From positions 1 through 53,014 of IMG/VR virus record IMGVR_UViG_3300042914_003037: a stretch of 53,014 nucleotides of DNA; one strand, given 5' to 3'. Below the pieces are notes generated by a model. The model was not told where the DNA came from. It was given only the letters and a program-made list of their open reading frames with translations, and searched no databases. This document shows, in pieces, positions 15,178-47,788 of this stretch (position 1 is the stretch's first letter; each line of letters starts with the position of its first letter). The translations under genes were made by a program, and so were the position numbers. The stretch is from a virus (lineage: Duplodnaviria > Caudoviricetes).

Positions 15178-15297
15178 AAACTGTATACGTTTCTTGCCTG
15201 CTGCTCTACCATCTGAGCTATATTACTCACTAGGAATAACAGTTGGATTTGAACCAACGACACACTGGGTGATTTAATAGTTGCTGTATGTATACAA
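15178..15297 (-). ncRNA. Y-RNA-like RNA with permuted tRNA domain (motif copy 2)
   Basis: TGTATAC-ATACAGCAA, T-arm GTTGG-TTCAAAT-CCAAC, loop-closed acceptor helix, D-arm GCTCAGATGGTAGAGC, then GTATACA. Confidence 0.75.
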
Positions 15298-15302
15298 AAA
15301 TA

Positions 15303-15546
15303 TAACAGAGTGAACGATACGGGTATTTTATTTCTCTGCTTGCCCCCTACCACTGTGGGATTCTGTATCACAAGCACAGTCTAAATCGTTTAGACCCGAT
15401 CTTGTTTTATTCTGCACAAGCATCATATCTAGTTCTCTAGAATATTAGTTATATCGTTGTCTAGTTTCCTAGAAATATTTCTACTGTCCTGCGACCAACT
15501 TCTACTACAGTGAGTCAGTAGTGTTTAAATTGCTGTAGTCACTCTA
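15303..15546 (-). ncRNA. stem/WCAGCAA motif RNA copy 3
   Basis: TAGAGTGA-CTACAGCAA...TCACTCTG-TTA. Confidence 0.6.
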
Positions 15547-15551
15547 AATTT

Positions 15552-15658
15552 TAACGGGATAGTTGCCTACTTTTTGTTTCAAGTGAGAAATCGAAACTCA
15601 CCTCGTCCGGCGAACCAGACCATCCATAGTTTTATTAAGTTTGCTGAACCTATCCCTA
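15552..15658 (-). ncRNA. stem/WCAGCAA motif RNA copy 4
   Basis: GGGATAG-GTTCAGCAA...CTATCCC-GTTA. Confidence 0.6.
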
Positions 15659-17164: not shown

Positions 17165-17254
17165 TGGCGGGTAGTGAGGGATTCGAACCCCCGAGGGCAT
17201 TTCTGCCCTAACTGCTTAGTAGGCAGCCGCCATAGTCCGCTCGGCCAACTACCC
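17165..17254 (-). tRNA. tRNA-Ser(ACT), A34
   Basis: Cloverleaf, loop CT-ACT-AA, long variable arm, G73, encoded CCA. Confidence 0.85.
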
Positions 17255-17263
17255 AAATATTTT

Positions 17264-17893
17264 TCACTCAGTATTTAGTGATGAATTAGTCTGTTGAATT
17301 TTTTGTCTTTTCTCTAACTTCTTACGAAGTAGAGTATGGATTCCAGGATTAATTCTAAGTACATTAGGCATAAATTCGTGCCTAATATAATTGCGAGTAT
17401 AACGAGTATCGTTATTACTAAAATCTTCAATCCACCGAACATTTTTTCTACGCGCCCAATTTTCTAAATCATACTTTCTATTTAATAGAAATGGTCGAAT
17501 GACATTGTTGCGTCTGTATGGTAGCAATTTGCTTTGTCCGTGCAAACTACTCCACGCCCATGTTTCTACTACATCGTCAAGATGATGCCCGGTAACAACA
17601 CACTCAAATTGACTTAAAAATTCATATCTCTTGTCTCTCCAGTATTCTTCCGCACTTAGTTTGAGAGGAATTGACGAATCCTCAATTCGCTTAGTGATAA
17701 GATTCAAGTTTCTATCTGAGCATTCCCGTGTAATGAAGTCGAGAGCACGATCACTGGTTTCTGTTCCGTGATGAAAGAATGCAACATTTACTGCATGGTT
17801 GCGAGAGAGAAAGTCAAGCAACACCATACTATCGATTCCGCCGCTACACGCGACAGTCACGACACGAGGAATTGACCCAAGAATCTTGATCAC
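17264..17893 (-). CDS. tilS: tRNA(Ile)-lysidine synthetase-like PP-loop ATPase (catalytic domain only)
   Basis: ACSGGIDS, TGHHLDDVVET, IRPFL, EDFSN..YTRNYIRH. Confidence 0.88.
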   Translation of the reverse strand: MIKILGSIPRVVTVACSGGIDSMVLLDFLSRNHAVNVAFFHHGTETSDRALDFITRECSDRNLNLITKRIEDSSIPLKLSAEEYWRDKRYEFLSQFECVVTGHHLDDVVETWAWSSLHGQSKLLPYRRNNVIRPFLLNRKYDLENWARRKNVRWIEDFSNNDTRYTRNYIRHEFMPNVLRINPGIHTLLRKKLEKRQKIQQTNSSLNTE

Positions 17894-26384: not shown

Positions 26385-26459
26385 TGGAGCGGGTGACAGG
26401 GATCGAACCTGCGACGAACAGCTTGGAAGGCTGACACTCTACCACTGAGTTACACCCGC
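26385..26459 (-). tRNA. tRNA-Gly(TCC)
   Basis: Cloverleaf with CCA. Confidence 0.95.
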
Positions 26460-26465
26460 GTTGTC

Positions 26466-26525
26466 TAACAGAATGCCTTTTTGTCAAATTACAATTTTGA
26501 TTTTATGTTTGCTGTAAGCATTCTA
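26466..26525 (-). ncRNA. stem/WCAGCAA motif RNA copy 5 (short, with anticodon-like hairpin)
   Basis: TAGAATGC-TTACAGCAA..TCAAA-ATTGTAA-TTTGA..GCATTCTG-TTA. Confidence 0.65.
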
Positions 26526-26530
26526 AATTT

Positions 26531-26605
26531 TGGTTGCGGGCCCTGGAGTCGCACCAGGTATCTACAGGTTATGAGCCTGTCGGGTTACTGTCTCCCTCGC
26601 CCGCA
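26531..26605 (-). tRNA. tRNA-Met(CAT), possibly initiator-type
   Basis: TGCGGGC/GCCCGCA acceptor, CTCATAA loop, CCA. Confidence 0.8.
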
Positions 26606-26612
26606 ATATAAC

Positions 26613-26801
26613 TTATTTATACTTGTTTAACCACGGAACTTCTTGCCAATACCCTTCAGTATAATACTCAAGATTTCCCTGATTGTTTATTCTGTAATCT
26701 CCATGTTTATCTGTTTCACTATGTTCATAGTGTATCATCGTATTGCTATGATTGTCAATCAATTGTTTATCCATTTGTTTATCCAATTTTTCATCTTTCA
26801 T
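26613..26801 (-). CDS. hypothetical protein
   Basis: ORF between tRNAs; AATAAATA upstream. Confidence 0.55.
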   Translation of the reverse strand: MKDEKLDKQMDKQLIDNHSNTMIHYEHSETDKHGDYRINNQGNLEYYTEGYWQEVPWLNKYK

Positions 26802-26845
26802 ACAAATATTTATTCATGACAACACTGAGCGTAAATTATATATTG

Positions 26846-26922
26846 TGGTGGTCAAGGGGATGCTCGAAATCCCACATTCCAACTTATGAGTTTGGCTCTA
26901 CTTCCTCTTAAGATACTTGACC
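26846..26922 (-). tRNA. tRNA-Met/Ile2(CAT), divergent
   Basis: GGTCAAG/CTTGACC acceptor, CTCATAA loop, CCA. Confidence 0.75.
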
Positions 26923-26928
26923 GATATT

Positions 26929-27002
26929 TGGTGCCTCCGGATGGTTACGCTCCACCGACAACCGCTTATCAAGCGGACGTTATACTATTTAACTAAGGAG
27001 GC
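26929..27002 (-). tRNA. tRNA-Ile(GAT), atypical T-loop
   Basis: TTGATAA loop, T-loop AGCGTAA, CCA. Confidence 0.8.
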
Positions 27003-27010
27003 AAATTATT

Positions 27011-27084
27011 TGGCAGAGGGTGAGGGAATCGAACCCACGAATTCGGAATCAAAACCCGATGTTATACCATTTAACTAACCCCCA
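27011..27084 (-). tRNA. tRNA-Gln(TTG)
   Basis: Cloverleaf with CCA. Confidence 0.88.
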
Positions 27085-27098
27085 ACAGAAAATTATTA

Positions 27099-27220
27099 TA
27101 ACAGGTTCTCTTTTTAAGTGCTACCACTACACCAATACTGCCGACCAAACAGTATCTGGGATTCGAACCCAGCCCTTCTTTTTTTCTGAAAGTTTAAAAT
27201 TATTTGCTGAAAAGAACCTA
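27099..27220 (-). ncRNA. Y-RNA-like RNA with permuted tRNA domain (motif copy 6)
   Basis: TAGGTTCT-TTTCAGCAA, T-arm CTGGG-TTCGAAT-CCCAG, ATACTGT/GCAGTAT closed acceptor, D-arm GTGTAGTGGTAGCAC, AGAACCTG. Confidence 0.75.
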
Positions 27221-27230
27221 ATGGTCTATT

Positions 27231-27707
27231 TTAATCGAATCTAAGCGATGTCGTTTGCTTTGGGGCAACGCCATCGTAGCGTTTTGTTATTTCTTCGCCT
27301 CGTTCTATGAATTTAATGGCTCTTAAACCAACTATTCTGTGAACTGTATCAATCACTTGTTCGCTATTTGGAGTGTCACTATGATTTACAAGTAAAAATG
27401 GACTAACAAAAACTCCATTTTTAAATCTGTCAGTTGATCTAAACTTAGGAATATCAGAATCGGGAAGTTTATACTCTATGTTTCCAACTGGTAAAACCTT
27501 TTCATTGTTTTTCCATTTTAGACCCATGCGTTTTACAAAAATTGTATCTTTAATCTTATTCCAATCGCTCTCGCTAATTGCAACTACTGGTCCCAAATGT
27601 ATTAGTGTTCCAGCAGGAATATCTCCCGCCGCAAACAACCCGTTTCCAGCATTTGGAATTTTTGATTTGGATACTACAGTAGACGAATATATTTCGTTGA
27701 TACGCAT
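27231..27707 (-). CDS. SET-domain protein (lysine methyltransferase fold)
   Basis: SKIPNAGNGLFA..DI..G, NHSDTPN, AIKFIERGEEITKRY. Confidence 0.88.
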   Translation of the reverse strand: MRINEIYSSTVVSKSKIPNAGNGLFAAGDIPAGTLIHLGPVVAISESDWNKIKDTIFVKRMGLKWKNNEKVLPVGNIEYKLPDSDIPKFRSTDRFKNGVFVSPFLLVNHSDTPNSEQVIDTVHRIVGLRAIKFIERGEEITKRYDGVAPKQTTSLRFD

Positions 27708-27723
27708 CTACTATTTATGCTCT

Positions 27724-27797
27724 TGGCGTCTCTCCACGGTACCGCCCCGCATTCCTCAGTTTTGGAGACTGATACATCACTTTAATGCTTGAGAGAC
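27724..27797 (-). tRNA. tRNA-Trp(CCA), atypical T-loop
   Basis: TCAGT-CTCCAAA-ACTGA, T-loop GGCGGTA, G73, CCA. Confidence 0.8.
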
Positions 27798-27874
27798 ATT
27801 ATTTTGGCAGTGAGTGTGGGATTTGAACCCAAACCTGCGTTTTTTTTCAATCATGCTGGATAGGCAAATTAAAT

Positions 27875-27964
27875 TGGCGGAGTGACTGGGACTTGAACCC
27901 AGAAGCCGTATTACTACAGCCGACGGATTAGCAATCCGCTCCAATACCATTATGGGATCACTCC
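27875..27964 (-). tRNA. tRNA-Ser(GCT)
   Basis: Cloverleaf, long variable arm, CCA. Confidence 0.9.
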
Positions 27965-28573
27965 TTGATGTTTTAACTCTTTTTTCTTCCACACAACCAA
28001 ACACTCATTAAATTGCGACCATTTACATCTATCCAATTCAGTTTCATACCCTTTAATTTCAAGATAGCCCCCTAATTCTTCTACCCAAAAATCTGGAGTG
28101 TAATAACTTATTTTATTTTTTAAGTTAATGTATTGAAATCTAATTGTATTTCTTTTCCAAAGAAAATTGTTCTGGTCTAACCATTTAGCTACCGCTAACT
28201 CCCACTTACCGTCTAAACTTACCTCGCCGGCGATTGGAGAAATGTATTTATATTTTTTACATCTTCCAGCTTTCGGGCTCCAACCATTTTCATATCTTTT
28301 GTTTATGTTAGTTCTGGCCGAATCTGCTAATCGTTTCTTGCCATCCACAGTTAATTTTCCTTTTCCATTCTTTTTGGAAATACTAACGGAATCGCTTATT
28401 TTTCTTGGGGTGAATAAACCATTCTTTACTGCTTGATTGATAAGTGTCTGGGAAGATAGATCATATAATTTGATTATGTCACGATATGAAAGTCCAGAAT
28501 CATACACGCGCTGAATTTCTTTCCAATCGTAATTTACAAATTTTTTATTATTCGAATTGTTTCTTTCCTTCAT
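27950..28573 (-). CDS. putative homing endonuclease, PD-(D/E)xK type
   Basis: WELAVAKWLD...YTPDFWV...YLEIKGY with N-terminal HTH-like part. Confidence 0.75.
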   Translation of the reverse strand: MKERNNSNNKKFVNYDWKEIQRVYDSGLSYRDIIKLYDLSSQTLINQAVKNGLFTPRKISDSVSISKKNGKGKLTVDGKKRLADSARTNINKRYENGWSPKAGRCKKYKYISPIAGEVSLDGKWELAVAKWLDQNNFLWKRNTIRFQYINLKNKISYYTPDFWVEELGGYLEIKGYETELDRCKWSQFNECLVVWKKKELKHQGVIP

Positions 28574-28703
28574 CGAGGGACATTGGCTGGAATAATTAGA
28601 ACAACATCATCTGCCTGACCCAAATTGCTTAATAGCATTAAGATTACATCCAAAATCACACTTCATTTATTTTTTTCTCCATGTGATTTTATTTATCAAA
28701 TAT

Positions 28704-28743
28704 TTGGTAGGGTGCCGATTTAAACCTCTCATCCAACTCACTA
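28704..28743 (-). pseudogene. 5' fragment of a Ser-like tRNA
   Basis: GTGAGTTGGATGAGAGGTTTAAATCGGCACCCT: acceptor strand and D-arm, no 3' half. Confidence 0.5.
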
Positions 28744-28748
28744 TATTC

Positions 28749-28828
28749 TGGTGGAGAATATCGGATTCGAACCGATCTGAATTTCCTCGGTGCAAGCGAG
28801 GCGACCACCCCAAGCAGTCCCATTCCCC
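28749..28828 (-). tRNA. tRNA-Ala(TGC)
   Basis: G3:U70, CTTGCAC loop, CCA. Confidence 0.9.
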
Positions 28829-28839
28829 ATAAAAAACTT

Positions 28840-28924
28840 TGGTGCCCCCCAAGAGACTCGAACTCTCACGCCTTTCGGCGCCAGGACCTAAACCTGGTGC
28901 GTCTACCAATTCCGCCAAGAGGGC
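28840..28924 (-). tRNA. tRNA-Leu(TAG)
   Basis: Cloverleaf, long variable arm, CCA. Confidence 0.93.
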
Positions 28925-28986
28925 AATCAATTATCTATTTAGCATTACTCACATTATAGTTCGTTGAACTATAATGTCAATAATTT

Positions 28987-29106
28987 TGGTGTCGCCGCTG
29001 AGATTCGAACTCAGGTTTCTTCCTTGGAATGGAATAAGAAATTGCTGAACGTACTCTATACAGAGTCACCCTTTTTTAAGCGTCCTAACCACTAGACGAC
29101 AGCGAC
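28987..29106 (-). ncRNA. tRNA-like RNA whose anticodon arm is replaced by the stem/WCAGCAA motif (copy 7)
   Basis: GTCGCTG/CGGCGAC-A-CCA, normal D and T arms, centre AAAAAAGGGTGACTCTGTATAGAGTACGTTCAGCAA. Confidence 0.7.
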
Positions 29107-29146
29107 AAAAATTCTGAACGGGTTTGCACCGTAATCAAAATGTTTT

Positions 29147-29204
29147 AAACAGAATGCTTTTTTTCACCAATTGAAAGTTGTGTAAGATTTGCTGTAAGCA
29201 TTCT
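29147..29204 (-). ncRNA. stem/WCAGCAA motif RNA copy 8
   Basis: TAGAATGC-TTACAGCAA..CAA-CTTTCAA-TTG..GCATTCTG-TT. Confidence 0.65.
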
Positions 29205-29210
29205 AAAATT

Positions 29211-29285
29211 TGGCGGTCCCAACGGGGGTCGAACCCGTTCCTGCGCCGTGACAGGGCGCTATCCTAGCCGGTAGACGATGGAACC
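29211..29285 (-). tRNA. tRNA-Asp(GTC)
   Basis: Cloverleaf with CCA. Confidence 0.92.
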
Positions 29286-29291
29286 TATATT

Positions 29292-29366
29292 TGGTAGGAG
29301 CATTGGGATTCGAACCCAAGACCAACGGATTAAAAGTCCGCTGCGCTACCGCTGCGCCATACTCCC
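29292..29366 (-). tRNA. tRNA-Lys(TTT)
   Basis: Cloverleaf with CCA. Confidence 0.92.
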
Positions 29367-29792
29367 AAAAATTGTTATCATATTTCAACACACTGATGGG
29401 CTTCTTTTAAGTCGAACTAACCCCGCACCCCAGTGATTTATTCCACTCTGTTCAGAGGTTGTTTTCAATGTGCTGAAATATGATATCTTAAAGACATCAT
29501 ATCCTACTTTGACTTTTAAAGAACTGTTTTGATGCAATACATAGATTGTGCATCAAACCTCAATTCTTGTCAATAGTAGTTTGACAATATGCTCACCAAC
29601 ACGAATTTCAATTAATCATCGTGTTTAGATTTTTTACAGCCGATGAATCATTGTCACGACATACGTAATAGCAACAACTTTACCTGACGATTTAATTAAA
29701 TAGATAATGTCAGCATCTAACTCATGTGTCTTACCACACTATATAATAATTTTAAAATATATATATTATTTTTGTGAGCATATCATCAAATT

Positions 29793-29870
29793 TGGAGTGC
29801 GGGGTCGGATTTGAACCGACGGTTTTCAGGATTTGCAATCCCGTGCAATGGGCCGCTCTGCCACCCGCAC
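29793..29870 (-). tRNA. tRNA-Cys(GCA)
   Basis: Cloverleaf, U73, CCA. Confidence 0.9.
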
Positions 29871-29876
29871 ACTAAA

Positions 29877-30239
29877 TTATAAATTACTTAAAGTTTTCCA
29901 ACCATATTTCTTTGCACAAGCAATACTAATTTTAAGTGCTGCTGCACATGGAAATCTATGATTCTTTTTAAAACGCCAGCCGTTTAAATAAAATTCTTTT
30001 AATACAGTATCACCATTCCAAGAATTGCGACTGGTCGTAATATAACCTTGTTCTTCTAACTGATCGCGCAGTTTAGTGAATTCATCATGATCTATGTTAC
30101 TGGTAGAGAACGACTTATCAGTGCCCTTAAGAACTTTGATAATATCGTCATGTGTGGGATTATTACGATCCTTAATCCAATCGTATTCTGTTCTAACAGT
30201 AACATCACAGATATATTCTTCCGATATTGTAAAATTCAT
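29877..30239 (-). CDS. hypothetical protein
   Basis: ORF with GGAG SD. Confidence 0.75.
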   Translation of the reverse strand: MNFTISEEYICDVTVRTEYDWIKDRNNPTHDDIIKVLKGTDKSFSTSNIDHDEFTKLRDQLEEQGYITTSRNSWNGDTVLKEFYLNGWRFKKNHRFPCAAALKISIACAKKYGWKTLSNL

Positions 30240-30412
30240 ATCTATTCTCCGATTATTATATGATCAAATGAGACTTAATATGGAATGATATGAGCAAAAT
30301 TACGAGTAGTGGACACTGCCCCGCACCATGCTCTACGCTGACTTTGGTTTCGAACCCTAGGCCAGTGTGCCTTTCTCTTGCTAACGCTGAAACACACTAT
30401 GTTATTGATCTA

Positions 30413-30799
30413 TTATATTTGGCGTGAAATTATTCTGAATCTTCGTAATTCATCTGTTAGTTTAGTTTGAGAATCAACCAACATTATACGCGCCTTGCGA
30501 CCTTCAAAAACAGTTTGGAGACGCCTTGCAAGGGAATCCTGCATTGCTACTCTGTCATTTATTTGACGCCGCACTTCAATCATAACAAAACAAGCATCGT
30601 TTGCATTTGTTCCTGACTTGTCTTTCACATATAGAACAATGTCGGGTCCCAATAGACGAACGCAAAATTCCTTAATTTCTTTTAACTCTTCAATGTCTAG
30701 AGGACCAGAGGGCTTGGGAGTAGGCCGCACACCCAGTTTTATCATTTGATTAGATTGGGGGATTAAGCCCCAATTAGTCTCGCTAAATTTAGAGTCCAT
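30413..30799 (-). CDS. degenerate minimal-nucleotidyltransferase-like protein, paralog of 6720-7046
   Basis: IKEFCVRLLGPDIVLYV...LARRLQTVFEGRKARIMLVD; lacks GS/DxD. Confidence 0.55.
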   Translation of the reverse strand: MDSKFSETNWGLIPQSNQMIKLGVRPTPKPSGPLDIEELKEIKEFCVRLLGPDIVLYVKDKSGTNANDACFVMIEVRRQINDRVAMQDSLARRLQTVFEGRKARIMLVDSQTKLTDELRRFRIISRQI

Positions 30800-31049
30800 T
30801 TTATATTTGCCTCACTTTTGGATTGATGCTGCACTTATTTATCGCATGTCTTCATTGCAGTTCTTCTTCACCATATTTCAACACACAGAATTCCCTGAAT
30901 CAACCCCCACTTAAAGCAACGGCGATCCATACATCAACTCACTTTATCGTTCATTGAGTCTGGAGTCGAACCAGAACTATGTGTTGAAATATAGTGCGAC
31001 CCATTGTGGGGTGAACTTCGAAACCACCATCTCGCCGCGCTTTAGACCA

Positions 31050-31754
31050 CTAAGCTACCGCCACTTTAGATTGTTTTCTTTTTTCCCAGGCCAACTTTGA
31101 CGCAACCGATAATTTTTGATTGTGATCCTCTGTTCGTTTTCTCTTGTGTGGGCTCTTTTTCTTACCTCTTACCTTATCTGCTTGCTTTTTAGCAACAGAT
31201 GGGTCCTTCATTGGGTTATTACTACTCATCCGAGTACTCAATATTTCCTGAGTATAAGATGATTTACAAATCACTGAACAAAATATTGTATTAGTAATTT
31301 TTAGATACGATGCGTTGCAATATTTACAAGTGCTCAATTTTTTTCTACCTGCAACCCATCCTTCAGGAATTACCACACTTTTTTCTATTTTCTTTTGTTC
31401 GCCCTGTAAATTTGTTATCCATTTAGTTCCGTGTTGAGAATTCCCTTCGGCAGTTTGATTTATTGACACCGCTTCGGCGTATTTTCTTCTAAGCCAGCCA
31501 TACAATTTATTTGATGGACGATTGACAATCATCACCCTTGCTGCGTAAATTAAAGAATGATTATCTGGATAGATTTTTATCAAGAGTTGATGAGCAACAT
31601 AATGTTCTTCTGGAGTTAGTTCGACCAGATTCTCTATCTCATCTGATCCACCCAAACAACGAGGAATAATATGGTGTATTTCCTTATATTCAGATTCAAT
31701 CTTTCTTTCTTTGCCTCTAGTAATCAGAGTATCGTAAATGTTCTTGTAATTCAT
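31050..31754 (-). CDS. HNH homing endonuclease
   Basis: EIHHIIPRCLGGSDEIENLVELTPEEHYVAHQLL; NUMOD-like basic C-terminus. Confidence 0.9.
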   Translation of the reverse strand: MNYKNIYDTLITRGKERKIESEYKEIHHIIPRCLGGSDEIENLVELTPEEHYVAHQLLIKIYPDNHSLIYAARVMIVNRPSNKLYGWLRRKYAEAVSINQTAEGNSQHGTKWITNLQGEQKKIEKSVVIPEGWVAGRKKLSTCKYCNASYLKITNTIFCSVICKSSYTQEILSTRMSSNNPMKDPSVAKKQADKVRGKKKSPHKRKRTEDHNQKLSVASKLAWEKRKQSKVAVA

Positions 31755-32490
31755 AGTAAAATGCTATAGTAGTTGGGGAGGTGAGATGCCCGCGAACTAC
31801 ACTATTATTTATCACAGTGCTATACAAATACTTCAATATGGTGGGGGAATTCCACCCCCTCTCAATGTGCAGGCTTGCTTACAGACGGTTATGTATTCCC
31901 GTTCTTCCCAACACCGCGATCTTTGAGTAAGACCATGTCTTAATGGTCGCAAGAGACACAGTGAGCAATCCCAACTTCTCATAGCCAATCAGCCACTTAG
32001 GTTAAACCCCGCGCCACTTACATGCTACCATATTTCAACACTCTACCCAACCTAGCCCGGGATGCTGTTTGTACATTAGAGGAGTGCTGAAATATGGCGC
32101 TGTATTTTTGCCCAAGGAGATTGACCTATTGTTCTTCTCTTCACACTGCGACAGCTTTGAACTGAGAGATCGCAGTAACTTGGAATACAGCATAACTTGG
32201 CGTACATGGAGATCATTTCAATCGTCTTTCGCTCTCGCAAGAGTACCCTCAATCTTCGGGCTCATGTACATAAACTAGTTGACAGTATATGGATTCTTTC
32301 CTGTCAGTCACGGAATTACTTCGAATAACCACGAGCATACTTCTCCGTAAAAGGGAGGTGCAACGTATCCGTGTCTTAAAACTTGATGAAGCATTCTGGA
32401 TTCGAACCAGAAGAGCGATACTCAGACCCTGCTAGCGGGTCATATGAGTGCTAGCACGCCGATACTATCTCACGCGATGCTTCAATAACT

Positions 32491-32579
32491 TGGTGGGTCC
32501 TGATGGTAACGCTCCACGAGGCAACTTCCTTACAAAACAATGCCAACGGATTTACAGTCCGCCGTAAGGGGCAGAACCC
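32491..32579 (-). tRNA. D-armless tRNA-Tyr(GTA)-like gene
   Basis: GGGTTCT/AGGACCC-A-CCA, GCGGA-CTGTAAA-TCCGT, short linker instead of a D-arm, expanded variable region. Confidence 0.65.
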
Positions 32580-32909
32580 AAATTCTTGCCGGTTACGCTT
32601 TCCGGCGCTGCTTGTAGTCTCCACAAATCAGGAGTAGTACACAGTCGTAAATACAAATTCTTGCCTGTAGTTCAACATGAAGGACTTTACATGCCTACAC
32701 CCACGTATTACGTTCCGACCGGGTTAGCCGTTGCAGACATCCTTCTGCACTAGGTACCATATTTCAACACACTACAGCTCATCTGAGGATTTCGACGTCC
32801 CCACAGGGTCCAGCACCACCTGGATGGTTCCTGCCTCTTGCGATAGCACTTGTGTAGATCCTTCCAACCACTGTCTACAAGCCCTTGGGTAGGCTAATGC
32901 GCTGAAATA

Positions 32910-32984
32910 TGGTACTCCCGAACGGTTTCGATCCGTCTTTTCCGCCTTGAAAGGGCAGCGTCCTAGCCAGTAGACGACGGGAGC
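32910..32984 (-). tRNA. tRNA-Glu(TTC)
   Basis: Cloverleaf with CCA. Confidence 0.9.
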
Positions 32985-33079
32985 AAATACTCTATGCTAA
33001 TTGTATAAAGAACTCGCTGATTTCTCAGCATGTTGACAGTATATCAGGACTCTGATTTATTGTCAAACTGTTTTTGTTT

Positions 33080-33164
33080 TGGTGCCCGGAGCCGGGGTCG
33101 AACCGGCACGCCGTTAAGCGAGGGATTTTAAGTCCCTTGTGTCTACCTATTTCACCATCCGGGC
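33080..33164 (-). tRNA. tRNA-Leu(TAA)
   Basis: Cloverleaf, long variable arm, CCA. Confidence 0.93.
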
Positions 33165-33170
33165 AATATT

Positions 33171-33247
33171 TGGTGCCCCCACCTGGACTCGAACCAGGAA
33201 CCTAACGATTATGAGTCGTTTGCACTAACCAATTGTGCTATAGGGGC
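33171..33247 (-). tRNA. tRNA-Ile2/Met(CAT)
   Basis: Cloverleaf, CGA-CTCATAA-TCG arm resembling bacterial Ile2, CCA. Confidence 0.88.
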
Positions 33248-33680
33248 ACGATCTAACTTACTATATTTCAACACACTATAGCTTCCTCTTGAGGCTCACT
33301 GGCCGTCTGACGCAGTGCTGGGCCTTGTACCCAGAAAATGTGCTGAAATATAGTATCACGCTACGTCAACGACTCTGAAAATCAGAATCTCAGTTGGCGT
33401 GATACAAAAACTCTATGCTAATTTTTAAAGATCGTCGCTGATTTCTCAGCGTTGAAGACAGTATATCAGAGTTCTGATTTATTGTCAAGAAACTGCCAGG
33501 TAGCTTAATGTGTGATTTCCACTACCCTGTTACTCTGTATCAGTCTAGGCAGTGTTCAAGGACTTTTGTCTCATGTCTTACCTAGCATCAACCTACGTCA
33601 CACTGTTTTCGACAGTTTGATAACTATAACAGAACCCTGATTTATCGTCAATTGCTATGCTCTGTAGGCTGACGCTTCAT

Positions 33681-33752
33681 AAACTCTAGGGGGATTCGAA
33701 CCCACCGTAACCCGCTCAAGGAGCAGGTATCCTATCCGCTAGATGATAGAGA
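33681..33752 (-). pseudogene. degenerate tRNA (loop TCCTTGA, no CCA)
   Basis: D- and T-arms recognisable, acceptor stem broken. Confidence 0.5.
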
Positions 33753-34504
33753 CTCCGATTTAGCACCGCGGCAACGGGGGTTCATCGGGTGAAGTAACAG
33801 ACCTTCTGACGATTGCCGCCATCAGCCTACAGAACACAACAACTTGTTAAAGAACTTCAGTGATTTCTCACTGTTAAAGACAGTATATCAAACTTCTGAT
33901 TTACTGTCAACTCCATTTTTCTCAATGATTAGATCGAAATGCACTCGCATCTGCTTTTTGAGCCGCGTGTTCTCCACCCTTGATTCCTAGACTAGTACTA
34001 GGGGTGTGTGCCCATTTACACTAGCACTTCGATCTAATCACTGATTGTTAAAGAACTACGCTGATTTCTCAACGTTAGAGACAGTATATCAAACTTCTGA
34101 TTTACTGTCAAGTTTCTATAGTGCGTTTATCAGCCCGCCCTGTTAGTTCAAGCTACGCACCCTTGCCGGATGCTCACACCGTTACGTGTGGAGGTTGATT
34201 CCTCTGTTGTAAGCCCCCGTAACGAGAGGCTTGCGGGCTGATAAACACACTACAGATTGTTAAAGAGCGACAGTTTACGCTACTGTCAAACGAAGGCCTG
34301 TGGGTTCTCAGGCTACCTCACACTAGACGTTATACTGACAACTGGGATTGTGCTTCCCGAAACAACCTGTAGCGGCTGTGGGAGTTTGTTGTCCCGCTTT
34401 TGTGCCTGCTACACTGTGACCCTGTTTGTTGTCAGTTCTCTAGCGTATGAATACATTATAGTTGAGACTTGATTTATTGTCAAGCATTAAGTTGTTAAGT
34501 TGTT

Positions 34505-34530
34505 TGGCGCGACTGGAGGGATTCGAATCT
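34505..34530 (-). pseudogene. 3' tRNA fragment (T-loop, acceptor strand, CCA)
   Basis: TTCGAATCCCTCCAGTCGCGCCA immediately after the endonuclease stop codon. Confidence 0.65.
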
Positions 34531-35325
34531 CTATACGCGATTTGATTTTCGTTTAAAACAATTATTTGTGTAGAATTCCAGAGCGTATCGTTTCATATAG
34601 TGATTTACTTTTTGCTGAGGCACTTCTAAAATTAGAGAGGCTTTTTTAACCCACCCAAACACGGAGAAGTTTATGTCAGACTCAAGTAATTTTTTAATTT
34701 TTGATAAAAACTTTTCATCGGTTTTTCTTTTTGTTTTTGTTCCCCTTGCCTCTGAGTTATTCATCAACTTATGCTGATCACGCAACATCTTTACATTGAA
34801 ATACTCAGTATAGTCTGGCTGTTCCCAACGAGTAATCAATTTTTTTAGGATTTCTTCATTGAAGCAACTAGAATAGTGCAATTCAATTAGTTTCCAGCCT
34901 GCATCAACAATTTCGTTGTGTCTATTTTGATAATACTCTTTAAGAGTGCCGTCTCTATTGTAATGCTGATTGCCGTTTATTTCAATTCCAAGTTTAATAT
35001 CAGGAAAAGCAATATCTATAGAGTAGTGGCGCGACTCTAACGGACTCCATTCTTCAACGAAGAGAATTTGCTGTTCAATTAAAAATTTCTTTACTCGTTC
35101 GCACGGCTCAGATTTGAATTTAGTGCTTCTCTTCCATACATGTTTGTCTGAGTTTTGCAGAAGATAGTTTATTCTACTTTTTGAAATTTTTTCTATAGTC
35201 TCAGATGTCACTATCTTCGCACAATTTACTGAGCAATACTTACTCCTTCTTCTGTCGTGAACTACTCCACAGCGTTCACAGTTTTTTTGTTTTCTAGGTC
35301 TAGACATAATTCGAACTTTCATCAA
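34531..35325 (-). CDS. putative homing endonuclease, Vsr/DUF559-like
   Basis: N-terminal CxxC..CxxxC; YSIDIAFPDIKLGIEINGNQHY...GWKLIELHY. Confidence 0.8.
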   Translation of the reverse strand: MMKVRIMSRPRKQKNCERCGVVHDRRRSKYCSVNCAKIVTSETIEKISKSRINYLLQNSDKHVWKRSTKFKSEPCERVKKFLIEQQILFVEEWSPLESRHYSIDIAFPDIKLGIEINGNQHYNRDGTLKEYYQNRHNEIVDAGWKLIELHYSSCFNEEILKKLITRWEQPDYTEYFNVKMLRDQHKLMNNSEARGTKTKRKTDEKFLSKIKKLLESDINFSVFGWVKKASLILEVPQQKVNHYMKRYALEFYTNNCFKRKSNRV

Positions 35326-35351
35326 CAGTAGTATTAATAAAAGTTCAAAAA

Positions 35352-35430
35352 TGGAGCCCCGGAGAGGATTCGAACCTCCATTGACTCCATTACACTGCTA
35401 CGCTTTAGAAGAGCGTTGTGGTACCGGGGC
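35352..35430 (-). tRNA. D-armless tRNA-Arg(TCT)-like gene
   Basis: GCCCCGG/CCGGGGC-T-CCA, ACGCT-CTTCTAA-AGCGT, canonical T-arm, 7-nt linker instead of a D-arm. Confidence 0.7.
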
Positions 35431-35605
35431 ATTGTTCGAATTTCATAATTAAGTTATTATATTGCTTTTTGATTTATTTGTCAACAGAAATGTTGATTCA
35501 GTCACTACTGTTTTGATTAAGTTGCTTTAGCAACTTTCGTTTTCTTTTAGATATAGCTTTGTCAGATATGTTTAACATCTAACACTCATACATGAAATTG
35601 TAAAT

Positions 35606-35874
35606 TGGCTCCCTGTCGTGGGATCGAACCACGGACCAACAGATTCTGGTTTGTGTGACTTTCGCCACTCCCTGGACTTTATCTTGACCATAGCATTTCT
35701 GCCTTAGGCCCCTGCCGTCAAGTCTCTACACGTTCCCATTTCTGGGCTTCGCTCGGTATTGCCATATGCTTTCGCACTTAGATTTCACCGAATTTGACAG
35801 GATTTTCAACTACTGTTTCCAGTAGAAGTGTCAATTTCTAACAGTCTGCTGCTCTACCGCTGAGCTAACAGGGA
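35606..35874 (-). tRNA. tRNA-Asn(GTT) interrupted by a group I intron
   Basis: Exons 35840-35874 and 35606-35645 join into a perfect cloverleaf. Confidence 0.92.
35646..35839 (-). mobile_element. group I self-splicing intron (194 nt, no ORF) at tRNA position 36/37
   Basis: 5' exon ends in U, intron ends in G; core AAATTCGGTGAAA, AATACCGAGC, GTAGAGACTTGAC, AAGATAAAGTCC. Confidence 0.9.
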
Positions 35875-35884
35875 ATTGTTTGAT

Positions 35885-35959
35885 TGGTGCCGGATGTCGG
35901 GTTCGAACTGACGACCTACCGCTTACAAGGCGGTTGCTCTACCACTGAGCTAATCCGGC
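35885..35959 (-). tRNA. tRNA-Thr(TGT)
   Basis: Cloverleaf with CCA. Confidence 0.93.
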
Positions 35960-36166
35960 AAAATCTTTGAAAGAACTAATTTATTTAGACGTAGTATATC
36001 ATCATCGGTATTTTTGTCAAACTGTTTGTTGTCCAAAATTTGTTGATGATTGCTAACGTCAGTAAAGATAACTCCTGTAGTGAAGGCACAATTCGTTCCA
36101 AGCGTTTATTGCATCGTCGTGTTGTCGTTGTATTTCGTTCCACTCATTCATAGTTATCTCCTTATT

Positions 36167-36249
36167 TGGTGCCCTAACTCGGACTCGAACCGAGAAGCCG
36201 AAGCAGTAGATTTTGAGTCTACCGTGTTTACCAATTTCACCATCAGGGC
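36167..36249 (-). tRNA. tRNA-Leu(CAA)
   Basis: Cloverleaf, long variable arm, CCA. Confidence 0.9.
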
Positions 36250-36256
36250 AATATTT

Positions 36257-36332
36257 TGGTGCTGCCTCGTGGGATCGAACCACGTTCCAAGGCTCTTCAG
36301 GCCTCCGCTATGACCACATCAGCTAAAGCAGC
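36257..36332 (-). tRNA. tRNA-Phe(GAA)
   Basis: Cloverleaf with CCA. Confidence 0.9.
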
Positions 36333-36346
36333 ATTATTTCATTATT

Positions 36347-36431
36347 TGGTGCACAAGAGAGGAATCGAACCTCCACGCCTTTCGGCACTACCACCTCAAA
36401 GTAGCGTGTCTACCAATTCCACCACATGTGC
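36347..36431 (-). tRNA. tRNA-Leu(GAG)
   Basis: Cloverleaf, long variable arm, CCA. Confidence 0.88.
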
Positions 36432-36463
36432 AGCGTGTATTCAAAGAACTTAGGGGTGACCGA

Positions 36464-36537
36464 TGGGGCGAAGTCGGGAATCTAACCCTGGCTAACTATT
36501 TCACAGATAGTTGTGCTAACACTACACTAACTTCGCC
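36464..36537 (-). tRNA. tRNA-His(GTG)
   Basis: G-1:C73, CTGTGAA loop, CCA. Confidence 0.85.
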
Positions 36538-36549
36538 ATCTGAAATATT

Positions 36550-36627
36550 TGGTCTGGGTGGCAGGCTCCGCCCCTGCGGCCTCCGGCTTCCAAAACCGGC
36601 CGTCTACTAGACTGACAATACACCCAG
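36550..36627 (-). tRNA. tRNA-Pro(TGG), atypical T-loop
   Basis: CTGGGTG/CACCCAG acceptor, TTTGGAA loop, T-loop GGCGGAG, CCA. Confidence 0.82.
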
Positions 36628-36636
36628 AATGTTCTT

Positions 36637-36732
36637 TGGACCGACGGGTGGGATTCGAACCCACATCAGTATACAGTGATACCACTCCAAGTTACCTTTG
36701 TCCGCGTTCGTAGCGCGGGGGGATACCGTCGG
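36637..36732 (-). tRNA. D-armless tRNA-Arg(ACG)-like gene
   Basis: CCGACGG/CCGTCGG-T-CCA, CCGCG-CTACGAA-CGCGG, canonical T-arm, ~37-nt variable region. Confidence 0.7.
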
Positions 36733-36751
36733 ATTGTTTGTTTGAATTTGT

Positions 36752-36827
36752 TGGTAGGTCTTGCTGGAATCGAACCAGCGGTCTTCACGATGTCAACGTG
36801 ACGATTTAGCCGCTAATCTAAAGACCT
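36752..36827 (-). tRNA. tRNA-Val(GAC)
   Basis: Cloverleaf with CCA. Confidence 0.9.
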
Positions 36828-36900
36828 GATGCTGTTGACGATTTGTCACATTGTCGCCGTCAACAAGGGCGAGAAATAACTTCAGTGTTCAAAAATTTGT

Positions 36901-36974
36901 TGGTGCTCCAGACAAGAATCGGACTTGTGATACATCCTTACCAAGGATGCGTTATACCATTTAACTACAGGAGC
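36901..36974 (-). tRNA. tRNA-Thr(GGT)
   Basis: Cloverleaf with CCA. Confidence 0.85.
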
Positions 36975-36978
36975 AATA

Positions 36979-37043
36979 TAACAGAATGCTTTTTTACGAG
37001 TCAAATTAGTAGTTTGATGTATAAGTTTGCTGTAAGCATTCTA
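36979..37043 (-). ncRNA. stem/WCAGCAA motif RNA copy 9
   Basis: TAGAATGC-TTACAGCAA..TCAAA-CTACTAA-TTTGA..GCATTCTG-TTA. Confidence 0.65.
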
Positions 37044-37049
37044 AAACTT

Positions 37050-37140
37050 TGGCGGAAGAGGGCGGAGTTGAACCCCCAAGGGCTTTCTAGGCCTCGACGC
37101 ATTTCAAGTGCGCTACCGTCGCCAGTCGGTTTGCTCTTCC
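37050..37140 (-). tRNA. tRNA-Ser(TGA)
   Basis: Cloverleaf, long variable arm, G73, CCA. Confidence 0.9.
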
Positions 37141-45529: not shown

Positions 45530-47788
45530 TTAGGCTGGGATCTCAGTTTCCCCAAAATCATTAACTTCAACAACATCATCTCCTTCACTTAATTCTCGAA
45601 CGTGTATCCATTTTTTCTCATTATCGCGATTAACCAACAATCTATGATTATCGGTGAGTTTAACTATTGAGCCATCTTCAAATATAATCTCATTAACAGA
45701 AGCCATCCCGTTATAATATATACTGGTTATAGAATCTGCATTTCCGTCCGGGCCGACAACAGAAATCTCATCTATTTCGTGATGTCCAATTAAATTAGTG
45801 GACTCTATCAATTCCCAATTCAATCCAGCTTTTTCACATAATTCGTGAAAATTTGGCAACGTTCCGTCTAAAGTATTTATCTTATCTTCCCAAGAATGAC
45901 AACTTTCTACTGGTGCAATAGCCATCAGTGTAGCATTTCTAATGCCAGATTTCAACATTCTTAAGCGAAGAGATTCCCAATCCAACGAAGGAGTAAAGTC
46001 AGTTAGATCGTTTACTCCTTCTGCTCTACGCTCCCAAGGGAATACTCCGCGACCATACCAAGTATGTTCGCTACGCTTGCAACTGCCGCGCTCTTCGGCC
46101 AATTCAATACTGGCTTCTGTTAGATAATAAGCCTGATGTTCCATCCAACGTTTTACTTCTGCAAGAGCTTCGGGTGTTCCGTATTTTAGTCCACGCTTGG
46201 CATGCCAGTAAGCCAAATTAGTGATACCAATTCCCAGAGGTTCAAATTCTTGGTTTGCCAATTTACTTTGAACTGACAGAAAATCTTGATATCCCAATAA
46301 ATTACTAAGACTTCTGACTAAGATTCTACAACTCTTACGCATATCTTGAGGGTTACGGAAACTTCCCCAATTTTGACTTCCTAAAGTGCATAACGCGATT
46401 CTTCCGTTTTCATCCTCTAAACGTTGAAATGGACGAGTAGGTAGTAGAATTTCTGCACATAAATTGGACATGTATACTGTATCAACTTCAGTATTAAATG
46501 GTCCTTGATTTATAACATTGTCGATATTTACAAAATAAATTCTGCCAGTGTCAGTGCGTTCTTTTATGACTGCATTCTTGAATATTTCGTCTGCTGCAAT
46601 TACTCGCTTTTTCTTTGTTTTGTCTGACTCATACTTTAAGTATAGTTCTTCAAAGCGACTTACATTTTTATAGTATGCTTCGTATAAATCTGGAACTTCA
46701 TGCGGATCAAATAGCGTAATGTTTTCTCCATTCTTGTATCTTCTCCAGAACATCTTACTTATTACTACACCATAATCCAATTGTCTTACGCGAGTTTCTT
46801 CTGTTCCCTGATTATTCTTCAATCGAATGAAGTCTTCAAACTGATAATGCCAAATAGGAAGATAAACGGTACAACTTGCATTTCGGATTCCACCCTGACT
46901 GCAACTACGCAAATCTCCATACCACTTCTTCAAGAAAGGAATTAGTCCAGTGTGTTTGATTTCGCCGTTTCTAATTGGTGAACCCACTGGTCTGATTCTT
47001 CCAATTTCTAATCCTATGCCGGCGCGCTTGGACGCATACTTGGCCATCATTTCGCCGGCGGCAAATATGCTATCAAGCGTGTCATCACTACTGATAAGAA
47101 CACAACTACTAAATTGTTTGGTGTTAGTTCCAAGACCAGCAAGAACAGGAGTAGCAAGTGTAAATTGACCTTCACTGGCACACTCATAGTATTCTTTTAC
47201 ATACTTTAATCTTTTTTCTTTTGATTCTGCGTGGAATGCAGTTGCCGCAGCGATAGCATACCGTATCTGTGGAGTTTCGTATATCTTACCCGTGCTACGA
47301 TTTTGCACAAGATATTTTTCGCATAACTGAGCAATCGCGGCATATGTATATCCCTCGTCCTTACTGTGATCTATAAACAGATCAATAATATCCCACTCTT
47401 CGTGTGTATACCACTCAAGTAAATCCGCAGTATACACCCCGAGTTCTACATTTCGTTTTACGATATCGTATAACTTCGGAGGATCATAGTCATTGTAAAC
47501 TTCTTTTCTAAGCATGCTGACTCTCTGTCTTCCGGCAACATACTGATAATTTACATTATTGATTTCTTGATTTTCTGATTCGTCAATCAAATCAACCATT
47601 GCTTTTAACAACAATTCATCAATAGTTGAAGTTTTGATTCCATCGTGAAATTGAATTTGTGCTCTGATTTCTATCATGCTGGCACTTACTCCATCTATTC
47701 CTCGGCATGCATGTGCTACTTGCCGCTGAATTTTGGAAATATCTAATTCTACCCTTGCGCCATCGCGCTTGATAACATGTATTGTCAT
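45530..47788 (-). CDS. nrdA: NrdA N-terminal extein fused to split intein N-fragment (123 aa)
   Basis: ATP cone VIKRDG, QFSSC, SNLCAEI, LCTL, AIAPVES|CHSWED...LTDNHRLL...VRELSEGDDVV. Confidence 0.94.
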   Translation of the reverse strand: MTIHVIKRDGARVELDISKIQRQVAHACRGIDGVSASMIEIRAQIQFHDGIKTSTIDELLLKAMVDLIDESENQEINNVNYQYVAGRQRVSMLRKEVYNDYDPPKLYDIVKRNVELGVYTADLLEWYTHEEWDIIDLFIDHSKDEGYTYAAIAQLCEKYLVQNRSTGKIYETPQIRYAIAAATAFHAESKEKRLKYVKEYYECASEGQFTLATPVLAGLGTNTKQFSSCVLISSDDTLDSIFAAGEMMAKYASKRAGIGLEIGRIRPVGSPIRNGEIKHTGLIPFLKKWYGDLRSCSQGGIRNASCTVYLPIWHYQFEDFIRLKNNQGTEETRVRQLDYGVVISKMFWRRYKNGENITLFDPHEVPDLYEAYYKNVSRFEELYLKYESDKTKKKRVIAADEIFKNAVIKERTDTGRIYFVNIDNVINQGPFNTEVDTVYMSNLCAEILLPTRPFQRLEDENGRIALCTLGSQNWGSFRNPQDMRKSCRILVRSLSNLLGYQDFLSVQSKLANQEFEPLGIGITNLAYWHAKRGLKYGTPEALAEVKRWMEHQAYYLTEASIELAEERGSCKRSEHTWYGRGVFPWERRAEGVNDLTDFTPSLDWESLRLRMLKSGIRNATLMAIAPVESCHSWEDKINTLDGTLPNFHELCEKAGLNWELIESTNLIGHHEIDEISVVGPDGNADSITSIYYNGMASVNEIIFEDGSIVKLTDNHRLLVNRDNEKKWIHVRELSEGDDVVEVNDFGETEIPA

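Follow-up and report, generated by a model that had tools for sequence, protein, structure and literature searches.

The DNA analyzed here comprises positions 1-53,014 of IMG/VR record IMGVR_UViG_3300042914_003037, a lake-water virus of the Caudoviricetes (Duplodnaviria). This whole stretch of 53,014 nucleotides (nt) is referred to as the window. It contains a tRNA array and, according to ARAGORN, 24 tRNA genes in all, each on the minus strand; it also contains a gene for a protein with a predicted Ro60-like fold and, on the same strand, nine small RNAs that share a common terminal structure, termed the handle. Short members of this RNA family carry a small interior hairpin that, to judge from its comparison among related phages, very probably mimics a tRNA anticodon arm.

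Handle RNAs of the window

The handle consists of a terminal helix of 7 base pairs (bp), the sequence N-U-N-CAGCAA after the 5' strand of this helix, an A-rich joiner before its 3' strand and a GUU tail. Read along the minus strand, 7 bases are followed by a triplet that is mostly N-T-A or N-T-T and by CAGCAA; the interior is variable and leads to an A-rich stretch, after which come the complement of the 7 initial bases and GTT. A regular expression for this architecture, which ignores the RNA interior and requires the terminal helix to pair, matched the window eight times on the minus strand and not at all on the plus strand. Copy 7, in which the parts are permuted, makes nine handle RNAs. 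Contigs from four lake-water DNA runs are identical in sequence over these RNAs.

Copies 1 to 4 follow one another upstream of the Ro60-like gene (13636-15021, minus strand, 461 amino acids), whose product is the presumed partner of the handle. Copy 1 (15037-15129, minus strand as for all copies, 93 nt) ends 15 nt before the start codon of this gene. Copy 2 (15179-15296, 118 nt) has a T arm, a closed acceptor stem and a D arm, copy 3 (15304-15545, 242 nt) represents a long class that is also found in relatives, and copy 4 (15553-15656, 104 nt) belongs to a class with a T-arm-like hairpin. The remaining copies 5 to 9 are located 11-22 kb from the gene. Among them, copy 6 (27100-27219, 120 nt) again combines a T arm, a loop-closed acceptor stem and a D arm, and its fold has a layout like that of the Y RNA YrlA. 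Copies 5, 8 and 9 are short. Copy 5 (26467-26524, 58 nt) is composed of the helix AGAATGC/GCATTCT, TTA-CAGCAA, the putative mimic arm, the A-rich joiner and the GTT tail, and is flanked by a tRNA that is detected by Rfam alone (26535-26604) and by tRNA-Gly(TCC) (26385-26459, minus strand). Copy 8 (29148-29204, 57 nt) directly follows tRNA-Asp, and copy 9 (36980-37042, 63 nt) lies between a tRNA-Sec-like call (37054-37140) and tRNA-Thr(GGT).

Copy 7 (28987-29106, 120 nt) is a tRNA-Gly(UCC)-like gene that ends with ACCA. Its handle helix is capped by a 4-nt loop and is inserted, together with CAGCAA, between the D arm and the anticodon arm. ARAGORN misses the intact gene, and in-silico deletion of 42-47 nt between these two arms results in a tRNA-Gly(tcc) call. 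The minimum-free-energy fold is a cloverleaf with one extra hairpin, which is the capped handle. An analogous gene is present in the related locus L021.

The initial annotation of this region had described copies 5, 7, 8 and 9 as short RNAs, each with a hairpin whose 7-nt loop resembles an anticodon loop. A string search found all four hairpins at the claimed places, each with a single exact occurrence in the window and on the minus strand; the chance expectation is 0.00-0.02 per string. They are TCAAA / ATTGTAA / TTTGA with the anticodon UGU in copy 5 (26484-26500), TTCC / ATTCCAA / GGAA in copy 7 (29020-29034), CAA / CTTTCAA / TTG in copy 8 (29168-29180) and TCAAA / CTACTAA / TTTGA with the anticodon ACU in copy 9 (37001-37017). 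All combine U33 with a purine at position 37, on stems of 5 bp in copies 5 and 9, 4 bp in copy 7, where further pairs follow beyond a mismatch, and 3 bp in copy 8. The arm of copy 9 is enclosed by an outer 3-bp helix, TAC/GTA, as in many relatives. The annotation was also right about the loops of the phage's own tRNAs as called by ARAGORN: those of tRNA-Glu(TTC) (32910-32984, minus strand, CTTTCAA) and tRNA-Ser(ACT) (17165-17254, minus strand, CTACTAA) are identical to the loops of copies 8 and 9, and those of tRNA-Thr(TGT) (35885-35959, minus strand, CTTGTAA) and tRNA-Gly(TCC) (CTTCCAA) differ from the loops of copies 5 and 7 at position 32 alone.

As short mimic RNAs, however, the four copies are not equivalent. 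Copies 5 and 9 are typical members, and their TCAAA/TTTGA stems recur in relatives with other triplets. The hairpin of copy 7 is the anticodon arm of a tRNA-like gene. Copy 8 is ambiguous. It belongs to a subclass with a conserved TGG(T/C)GAAA that comprises 6 of 192 unique short RNAs, its 3-bp CAA/TTG stem is not kept in the closest relatives, and a rival hairpin, TTTC / AATTGGT / GAAA, is equally possible.

The handle in related phages

A first sample consisted of 80 viral-contig loci encoding relatives of the Ro60-like protein at 54-62% identity, out of at least 280 that were found. These loci come from related lake-water phages, and the counts given here are not independent events. In these loci the regular expression had 184 hits on the gene's strand against 5 on the opposite one, and 73 of 81 sources (the 80 loci and the window) have at least one hit. 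The lengths of the RNAs are bimodal: 78 instances (61 unique) have at most 70 nt, and the others have 80-280 nt. One of the 61, L001:10670-10735, lies inside the Ro60-like protein gene and is probably a false match; it was omitted from the MAFFT alignment described below and from nothing else.

A second sample was chosen without reference to the protein. Scanning a viral collection with the pattern AGGAT-N5-CAGCAA-N25-50-ATCCTGTT yielded at least 120 stretches. Two positions of the helix are left free by this pattern, and they pair in 129 of 131 new unique RNAs, compared with about 14% expected by chance if G-U pairs are allowed. The Ro60-like gene is present in 35 of 118 pattern-selected loci, always on the same strand as the RNA (35/35). 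Five long contigs lack the gene in the stretch that bears the RNA, and all five encode it elsewhere (E values of 1e-138 to 1e-171). A looser handle pattern gave 14 matches in these contigs, all on the strand of the gene; a reversed control pattern gave one. As a negative control we used the 120 listed matches of the same pattern in a prokaryote genome collection. They behave as expected for chance and point to no host, with a complete helix in 24/120, any hairpin with a 5-bp stem and a 7-nt loop in 21/120 and the combination with U33 and purine 37 in 2/120. About four of the 120 look by eye like true members in binned phage contigs and were left in the control. Taken together, the comparison of sequences indicates that the handle RNAs are a real phage RNA family.

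An anticodon-like arm in the short RNAs

In the first set of short RNAs, the best interior hairpin has a 7-nt loop in 34 of 61 unique sequences (mean of 4.7 and maximum of 11 in 500 shuffles). A perfect 5-bp stem closes a 7-nt loop in 44/61, compared with a mean of 6.2 and a maximum of 14 in 1000 shuffles. The initial annotation had proposed to look among homologues for an excess of 7-nt loops with U33 and a purine at position 37 over shuffled controls. Perfect hairpins with both features occur in 35 of the 61 (shuffle mean 1.1, maximum 6). The second set behaves alike, with a perfect hairpin of this shape in 88/129 (shuffle mean 12.1, maximum 22) and the additional U33 and purine 37 in 68/129 (mean 2.0, maximum 9). 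The annotation had conceded that chance could account for such short, AU-rich stems, and it had named a lack of anticodon-loop bias in homologues as the observation that would tell against its idea. A strong bias was found instead and, for the family, the homologues settle the question of chance, the counts being far above those in shuffled sequences.

The composition of the loops points in the same direction. Among 51 hairpins of the first set, C32 is present in 28, T33 in 39, A37 in 44 and A38 in 41, on an interior background of C 0.13, T 0.29 and A 0.48. The 68 strict arms of the second set have C32 in 54, A37 in 66 and A38 in 60. For comparison, 1006 tRNAs called by ARAGORN in the same sources have C32 in 62%, T33 in 99%, A37 in 90% and A38 in 78%. 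Position 34 of the first-set hairpins is T in 29, G in 15, A in 4 and C in 3; A34 is found in 3% of the tRNAs.

A MAFFT alignment of 60 RNAs was made without reference to structure, and in it 81% of the cells of the five stem pairs are paired. If the partner strand is slid by 1-3 columns this value falls to 35-46%. All five stem pairs show changes on both sides. The covariation of the terminal helix in the same alignment is circular, since the regular expression demanded its pairing. From the loop length, the preference for C32, U33, A37 and A38 and the compensatory changes in the stem, we conclude with high confidence that the hairpins are selected mimics of anticodon arms.

Repertoire of the arms

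Over both sets, 103 of 190 unique short RNAs have a strict arm, and these arms comprise 53 distinct 17-mers. The commonest anticodon is UUU (26 of 103), followed by UGU (16), GGA and UGA (9 each), UCU (8), GUA (7) and GCA (4); GGU, UGG, GCU and GUU occur three times each and the others are fewer. CAU, the commonest anticodon of the real tRNAs (89/1006), is absent from the 103 mimic arms. The same few stems bear several different triplets. Since the stems recur in this way and match no tRNA stem, the loop appears to be the only tRNA-like part and the triplet an exchangeable cassette.

The other 89 of 192 unique short RNAs, a tally that also keeps two with an incomplete terminal helix, have no strict arm. 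In 18 of these the stem of the arm is reduced to 4 bp, and in another 16 a 4-bp stem encloses a 9-nt loop in which the motif is retained. A GC-richer stem defines a separate class of 16, the class of copy 8 accounts for 6, and 33 are unclassified.

Of the 2909 tRNAs called in 199 sources a single one has the anticodon ACU, and so does a single one of the 103 mimics; both are located in the window. This coincidence suggests some coupling of the mimics to the phage's own tRNAs. The tRNA-Ser(ACU), which has A at position 34, adjoins a gene for a PP-loop enzyme and lies about 1.5 kb from the cluster of RNAs at the Ro60-like gene.

Relation to tRNAs and to the tRNA array

The longer handle RNAs are related to tRNAs in a graded way. 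TTCGA or TTCAA is present in 63 of 101 unique long members, and many of them, copies 2 and 6 included, consist of a T arm, a loop-closed acceptor stem and a D arm. According to our reading of their sequences, L071 and L060 contain near-complete tRNAs in which the handle helix replaces the acceptor stem, and L063 contains a permuted tRNA whose anticodon arm adjoins the handle. Since the handle is found with a whole tRNA, with elbow and acceptor stem or with the anticodon arm alone, it appears to have been grafted at different points of the tRNA frame. The near-complete and permuted forms, together with the tRNA-Gly(tcc) call for copy 7 without its insert, argue for a descent of the handle RNAs from tRNA.

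The short RNAs are also placed like tRNAs. A tRNA on the same strand lies within 15 nt of 53 of the 78 short instances, with usual gaps of 5-6 nt upstream and 6-9 nt downstream. Because of this tRNA-like spacing, the short RNAs seem to occupy tRNA slots in the array. Neither ARAGORN nor the Rfam tRNA model calls a tRNA in copies 5, 8 and 9. After the terminal helix these copies end with GTT, not with a discriminator base and CCA; the neighboring tRNAs encode CCA.

Two further observations concern the array. A group I intron (35653-35851, minus strand, with flanks to about 35610 and 35890; Rfam 59.8 bits, gathering score 50) apparently interrupts the anticodon loop of a tRNA-like gene that ARAGORN does not call. 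Moreover, isolated tRNA 3' halves, consisting of T arm, acceptor strand and CCA with no 5' half, are located at 27798-27860, 32384-32450 and 34498-34545 on the minus strand. They adjoin open reading frames that resemble homing endonucleases, namely an HNH frame at 31050-31754 and the frames at 27950-28573 and 34531-35325.

The Ro60-like protein

In Pfam, the 461-residue protein matches DUF7788 (E value 6.7e-46) and DUF2828 (1.9e-29), and TROVE is not scored. PHROGs assigns it to family 850, 'RNA-binding protein' (E value 1.1e-151), and a protein-atlas lookup returned DUF2828 clusters only. An AlphaFold2 model built from 22 homologues has a predicted local distance difference test score of 84.7. 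The 13 best Foldseek matches of this model in the PDB are all Ro60, with E values from 2e-8 and template modeling scores of about 0.6; they include Xenopus and human Ro60, Deinococcus Rsr and the Ro60 of Thermus phage phiLo. Asp268, Ser270 and Ser272 are invariant in all 22 aligned sequences (22/22). This D-x-S-x-S spacing is that of a metal-site motif of von Willebrand factor A domains. [quoted passage not shown]

Tethering of the RNAs to this protein can reasonably be inferred from the Y RNAs, given the co-occurrence of the handle with a gene of predicted Ro60-like fold on the same strand. On these grounds we consider it probable, with moderate confidence, that the handle RNAs are bound by the Ro60-like protein.

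One class of handle RNAs ends directly before the start codon of the Ro60-like gene. It is represented by copy 1 in the window and is also found in L023, L024, L027, L029-L031, L035 and L050. With such an RNA immediately before its start codon, the protein might regulate how its own message is translated. About 2 kb upstream of the gene and on the same strand, the window carries a gene of the RNaseH_like family (PF04308; 15907-16392, minus strand). It is found in that place in 21 of 80 related loci, and its product may be a further partner. In one relative (G005:C1) the Ro60-like gene is in two pieces (114278-115267 and 116407-116808, minus strand) that are about 1.1 kb apart. The split lies between query residues 134 and 135 and may be due to an intron or the insertion of a homing element.

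Other features of the window

A second RNA-like family has five members of 66-152 nt on the minus strand (29380-29481, 30873-30992, 32030-32095, 32759-32910 and 33263-33351). The interior of its members is GC-rich and is enclosed by a long terminal helix, ATATTTCA(G/A)C(A/G)C ... G(T/C)G(T/C)TGAAATAT; an exact match to this motif was not found among 198 viral loci. Strong promoter-like TTGACA-17-TATACT repeats occur on the minus strand at 33038-33066, 33460-33488, 33882-33910, 34083-34111 and other positions. Each of these four sites is followed by a small conserved hairpin (...GAGAAATCA...) and then by TTCTTTAA or TCTTTAAA. The gene for the large subunit of ribonucleotide reductase (45530-47788, minus strand) has, at its C-terminal end, a weak match to an intein-splicing domain, which is below the cut-off (Pfam E value 1.3e-5).

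Proposed function

We propose the following role for the short RNAs. They are probably cut from the array transcript together with the tRNAs, and the enzymes that separate the tRNAs would release them. Through the handle, they probably attach to the phage Ro60-like protein in the manner of Y RNAs and Ro60. The anticodon arm would be exposed on this particle, with a specificity set by the three-letter cassette. As a bait, the displayed arm would trap host enzymes directed at the anticodon loops of tRNAs, or compete for them, with defense nucleases as the foremost targets. In this way it would spare the tRNAs that the phage needs. A bait for anticodon nucleases is a possibility that we advance tentatively, and the same reserve applies to the proposed explanation as a whole.

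A role against nucleases is suggested by the variation of the triplet cassette on constant scaffolds and by the large tRNA arrays that these phages carry. A circumstantial argument comes from the nuclease AriB of the PARIS system. In the available portion of a published study, the prime targets of AriB in Escherichia coli are the UUU and UGU tRNAs, and GUU is a secondary target (PMC12409363). These two prime targets have the commonest anticodons of the mimics.

Several observations weigh against the proposal, some against the bait and some already against the arm. According to the same portion of that study, AriB reads a stem site, U36-A-A-U-C-A41, and needs contacts to the D loop (PMC12409363); the short RNAs lack the D loop that AriB contacts. 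None of the 53 distinct mimic arms is identical to an arm of the 2909 tRNAs called in the 199 sources, and a nuclease that reads the stem or the body of the tRNA would consequently not be fooled. The mimic stems are AU-rich, with 1.9 G+C letters out of 10 compared with 6.0 in real tRNAs. Two of the loops in the window equal those of the phage's own tRNAs, which is unexpected if the phage tRNAs have diverged from the host targets. The mimic anticodon has a cognate tRNA in the same locus in 28 of 42 cases, with a permutation mean of 27, and thus shows no link to the local tRNAs, the loci being partial genomes. In about one third of the short RNAs, no clear hairpin of the anticodon type is seen. 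Furthermore, when copies 5, 8 and 9 are folded as single sequences, the terminal helix is kept and the small hairpin is not chosen (z scores of -1.2 to -2.3). Since these folds omit it, the case for a mimic rests on comparison and not on energy, and the comparison draws on the related phages mentioned above.

The stem site of AriB was also tried as a signal in its own right and was rejected. One common mimic scaffold has the site, as does only 1 of 81 real phage tRNA-Lys(UUU). It is not a general signal, because it is common in real phage tRNA-Thr(UGU) (35/108) and tRNA-Asn(GUU) (58/113).

A more far-reaching version of the proposal is a programmable bait, in which a Ro60-like ring holds RNAs that show a whole tRNA, elbow and acceptor stem or the anticodon arm, the triplet picks the host anticodon nuclease that is caught or neutralized, and the handle is the viral counterpart of the Class I RNAs of dictyostelids. 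We regard this version as speculative and quite unlikely to hold in all its parts. If it were true, it would be an RNA-based counter-defense that has not yet been described, and the dictyostelid Class I RNAs would be Y-like RNAs of a Ro60 relative rather than an invention of the amoebae.

Alternative explanations

The same particle could serve a reader other than a nuclease, for instance an enzyme that modifies the anticodon loop, the anticodon-binding domain of a synthetase or the ribosomal A site at a codon emptied by tRNA depletion, and it would then titrate or sense this reader. We consider this explanation rather unlikely. Position 36 is U (27) or A (21) in 48 of the 51 first-set hairpins and U or A in 64 of the 68 strict arms of the second set, and A37 is present in 44/51. 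The combinations U36-A37 and A36-A37 mark tRNAs that receive N6-threonylcarbamoyladenosine (t6A) and N6-isopentenyladenosine (i6A), and some such enzymes, and likewise the 30S A site, take an anticodon stem-loop on its own. A gene for a TilS/TtcA-like PP-loop enzyme (17264-17893, Pfam ATP_bind_3) lies 2 kb away, and the confinement of the tRNA likeness to the loop suits readers of the loop alone. However, the bias for U or A at position 36 may partly reflect the AT-rich composition (A 0.48, T 0.29), CAU is absent from the mimics although it has U36 and is the commonest anticodon in real tRNAs, and we know of no tie of such factors to Ro60-like proteins.

A decidedly improbable alternative is that the handle alone is functional, as a binding site or a processing signal, and that the small hairpin is the decaying leftover of a tRNA. 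The graded forms from near-complete tRNA to arm-only RNA, the third of the short RNAs that have no clear hairpin and the weakness of the stems would be consistent with such a decay. On the other hand, decay should lose U33, A37, A38 and the loop length, whereas U33 and a purine at position 37 are kept in 35/44 and 68/88 of the perfect hairpins, and the stems show compensatory changes. Moreover, since the stems copy no tRNA stem (0/53), the arms appear to be old and maintained, which speaks against a leftover.

It is highly improbable that translation uses the short RNAs, in charged form, as minimal armless tRNAs. A 7-bp terminal helix and an anticodon arm joined by single strands recall the armless mitochondrial tRNAs of nematodes. 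Nevertheless, the RNAs end with GUU, not with the discriminator and CCA of the neighboring tRNAs, they are not called by the tRNA detectors, and their conserved CAGCAA has no counterpart in tRNA. In addition, bacterial elongation factors and synthetases need the tRNA elbow.

Finally, it is barely credible that the hairpins are chance AU-rich palindromes or promoter or terminator parts in array spacers: the stems are short and AU-rich and a promoter-like TTGACT-18-TATATT overlaps copy 9 (37004-36975), but the hairpins are greatly enriched over shuffles and over chance pattern matches, a promoter scan gave no comparable match over the small hairpin of copies 5 or 8, and no -35 box is kept, because the stems differ among relatives. 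The promoter or terminator reading was rejected for the family, since such a site lies over copy 9 alone and the hairpins are followed by runs of A and not of T. For copy 8 alone, chance or a promoter is a possible explanation.

A bait for anticodon nucleases would be of interest for several reasons. The cleavage of tRNAs is now recognized as a common bacterial defense against phages, and phages are known to answer it with repair enzymes and with replacement tRNAs. A third answer would be an RNA that shows an anticodon arm on a Ro60-like particle and is itself not chargeable, with a specificity that can be read from three letters. It would extend the tRNA mimicry of Y RNAs to the part of the tRNA that is left out by the known mimics. 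For the large, uncharacterized DUF2828 family, which has members in viruses as well as in bacteria and eukaryotes, it would provide a candidate RNA partner and a function open to testing. The size of the phage family is illustrated by the related protein loci, of which there are at least 280, and by at least 120 stretches in the pattern scan.

Comparison with known systems

The following comparisons refer to the available portions of the cited papers. An answer of T5 to PARIS involves tRNAs as well. T5 variants of tRNA-Lys, tRNA-Thr and tRNA-Asn escape the nuclease and are working tRNAs that replace the cleaved host ones (PMC12409363). The handle RNAs resemble them in that both would concern a conflict over anticodon loops and that UUU, UGU and, to a lesser extent, GUU stand out in both. 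Unlike the T5 tRNAs, the handle RNAs cannot be charged and could act by binding alone.

Compared with tRNA (RF00005), the short RNAs share the 5-bp stem and 7-nt loop with C32, U33, A37 and A38, and at position 34 U or G predominates and A is rare, in line with real tRNAs. They differ in the lack of D arm, T arm and CCA and in AU-rich stems that are unlike those of the tRNAs of these phages.

In Rfam 15, no family reaches its threshold on the short handle RNAs. Below threshold, they match only Dicty_Class_I_RNA (RF01414), with 30.6 bits for copy 8 and 29.2 bits for copy 5 (gathering score 41.5); copy 9 is unmatched. Class I RNAs of dictyostelids have about 60 nt, a short terminal stem, (A)AG at the start, CUGU at the end, an A-rich 3' part and a variable interior (PMC7919456). 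An 11-nt motif adjoins the 5' strand of their stem, and T3, C6, C9, A10 and A11 of this motif are conserved (PMC7919456). Window copies 5 and 8, if aligned to the model, read C-T-T-A-C-A-G-C-A-A at this site, most members of the handle family have AG...CTGTT ends, and the handle has all Class I marks listed here. However, the Class I RNAs are eukaryotic, have their own upstream promoter element, bind a protein with an RNA recognition motif and are described in that text as unique to Dictyostelia (PMC7919456). The phage short RNAs lie 5-6 nt behind tRNA genes, whereas the Dictyostelium upstream sequence element (DUSE), about 60 nt upstream, is a eukaryotic promoter element. Since the RF01414 model gave no match at E values up to 0.1 on the three related loci L058, L072 and L024, the likeness to Class I RNAs is a lead and not a membership. 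If it should reflect homology, it would bear on the role of those abundant amoebal RNAs.

The known RNAs nearest to the handle RNAs in kind are the tRNA-mimicking Y RNAs. Bacterial and phage Y RNAs have their genes next to that of Ro60, and in mimicking tRNA they combine T and D arms with a stem that resembles the acceptor (PMC4201824). In YrlA, a stem-loop between T and D arms replaces the acceptor stem, and the available text describes no anticodon arm (PMC4201824); for Yrn1 of Deinococcus radiodurans it mentions no more than a possible anticodon arm, whose loop has 6 nt (PMC4201824). Thermus phage phiLo has a Ro60 that binds two Y-like RNAs of the phage (Yrl1/Yrl2) and, with them, the host polynucleotide phosphorylase (PMC12135203). 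Jumbo phages carry TROVE proteins, which have been noted within RNA repair repertoires (PMC7824862). In the literature found by our searches there was no description of the present RNAs or of a function of DUF2828; the supplementary tables of phage Y RNAs of Chen et al. 2014 lie outside this coverage.

The phage system resembles YrlA and Ro60 in having several small RNAs per genome beside a gene of predicted Ro60 fold and on its strand, with a terminal helix as handle and mimicry of tRNA parts. Copies 2 and 6 share the T arm, closed acceptor stem and D arm with YrlA, and the short copies 5, 8 and 9 lack them. The best match of the Rfam model of YrlA in the handle RNAs, in copy 2 (15200-15265), reaches 26.7 bits against a gathering score of 69, and copies 5, 7, 8 and 9 are unmatched. 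Unlike YrlA, the phage handle has a signature of its own, consisting of CAGCAA and the GUU tail, and the protein scores as DUF2828/DUF7788 in Pfam and not as TROVE. A further difference from YrlA is that the short phage RNAs mimic the anticodon arm and are scattered through the tRNA array. What appears to be new with respect to the tRNA-mimicking Y RNAs is thus the handle itself, a distant Ro60 relative as its presumed partner, and the mimicry of the anticodon arm.

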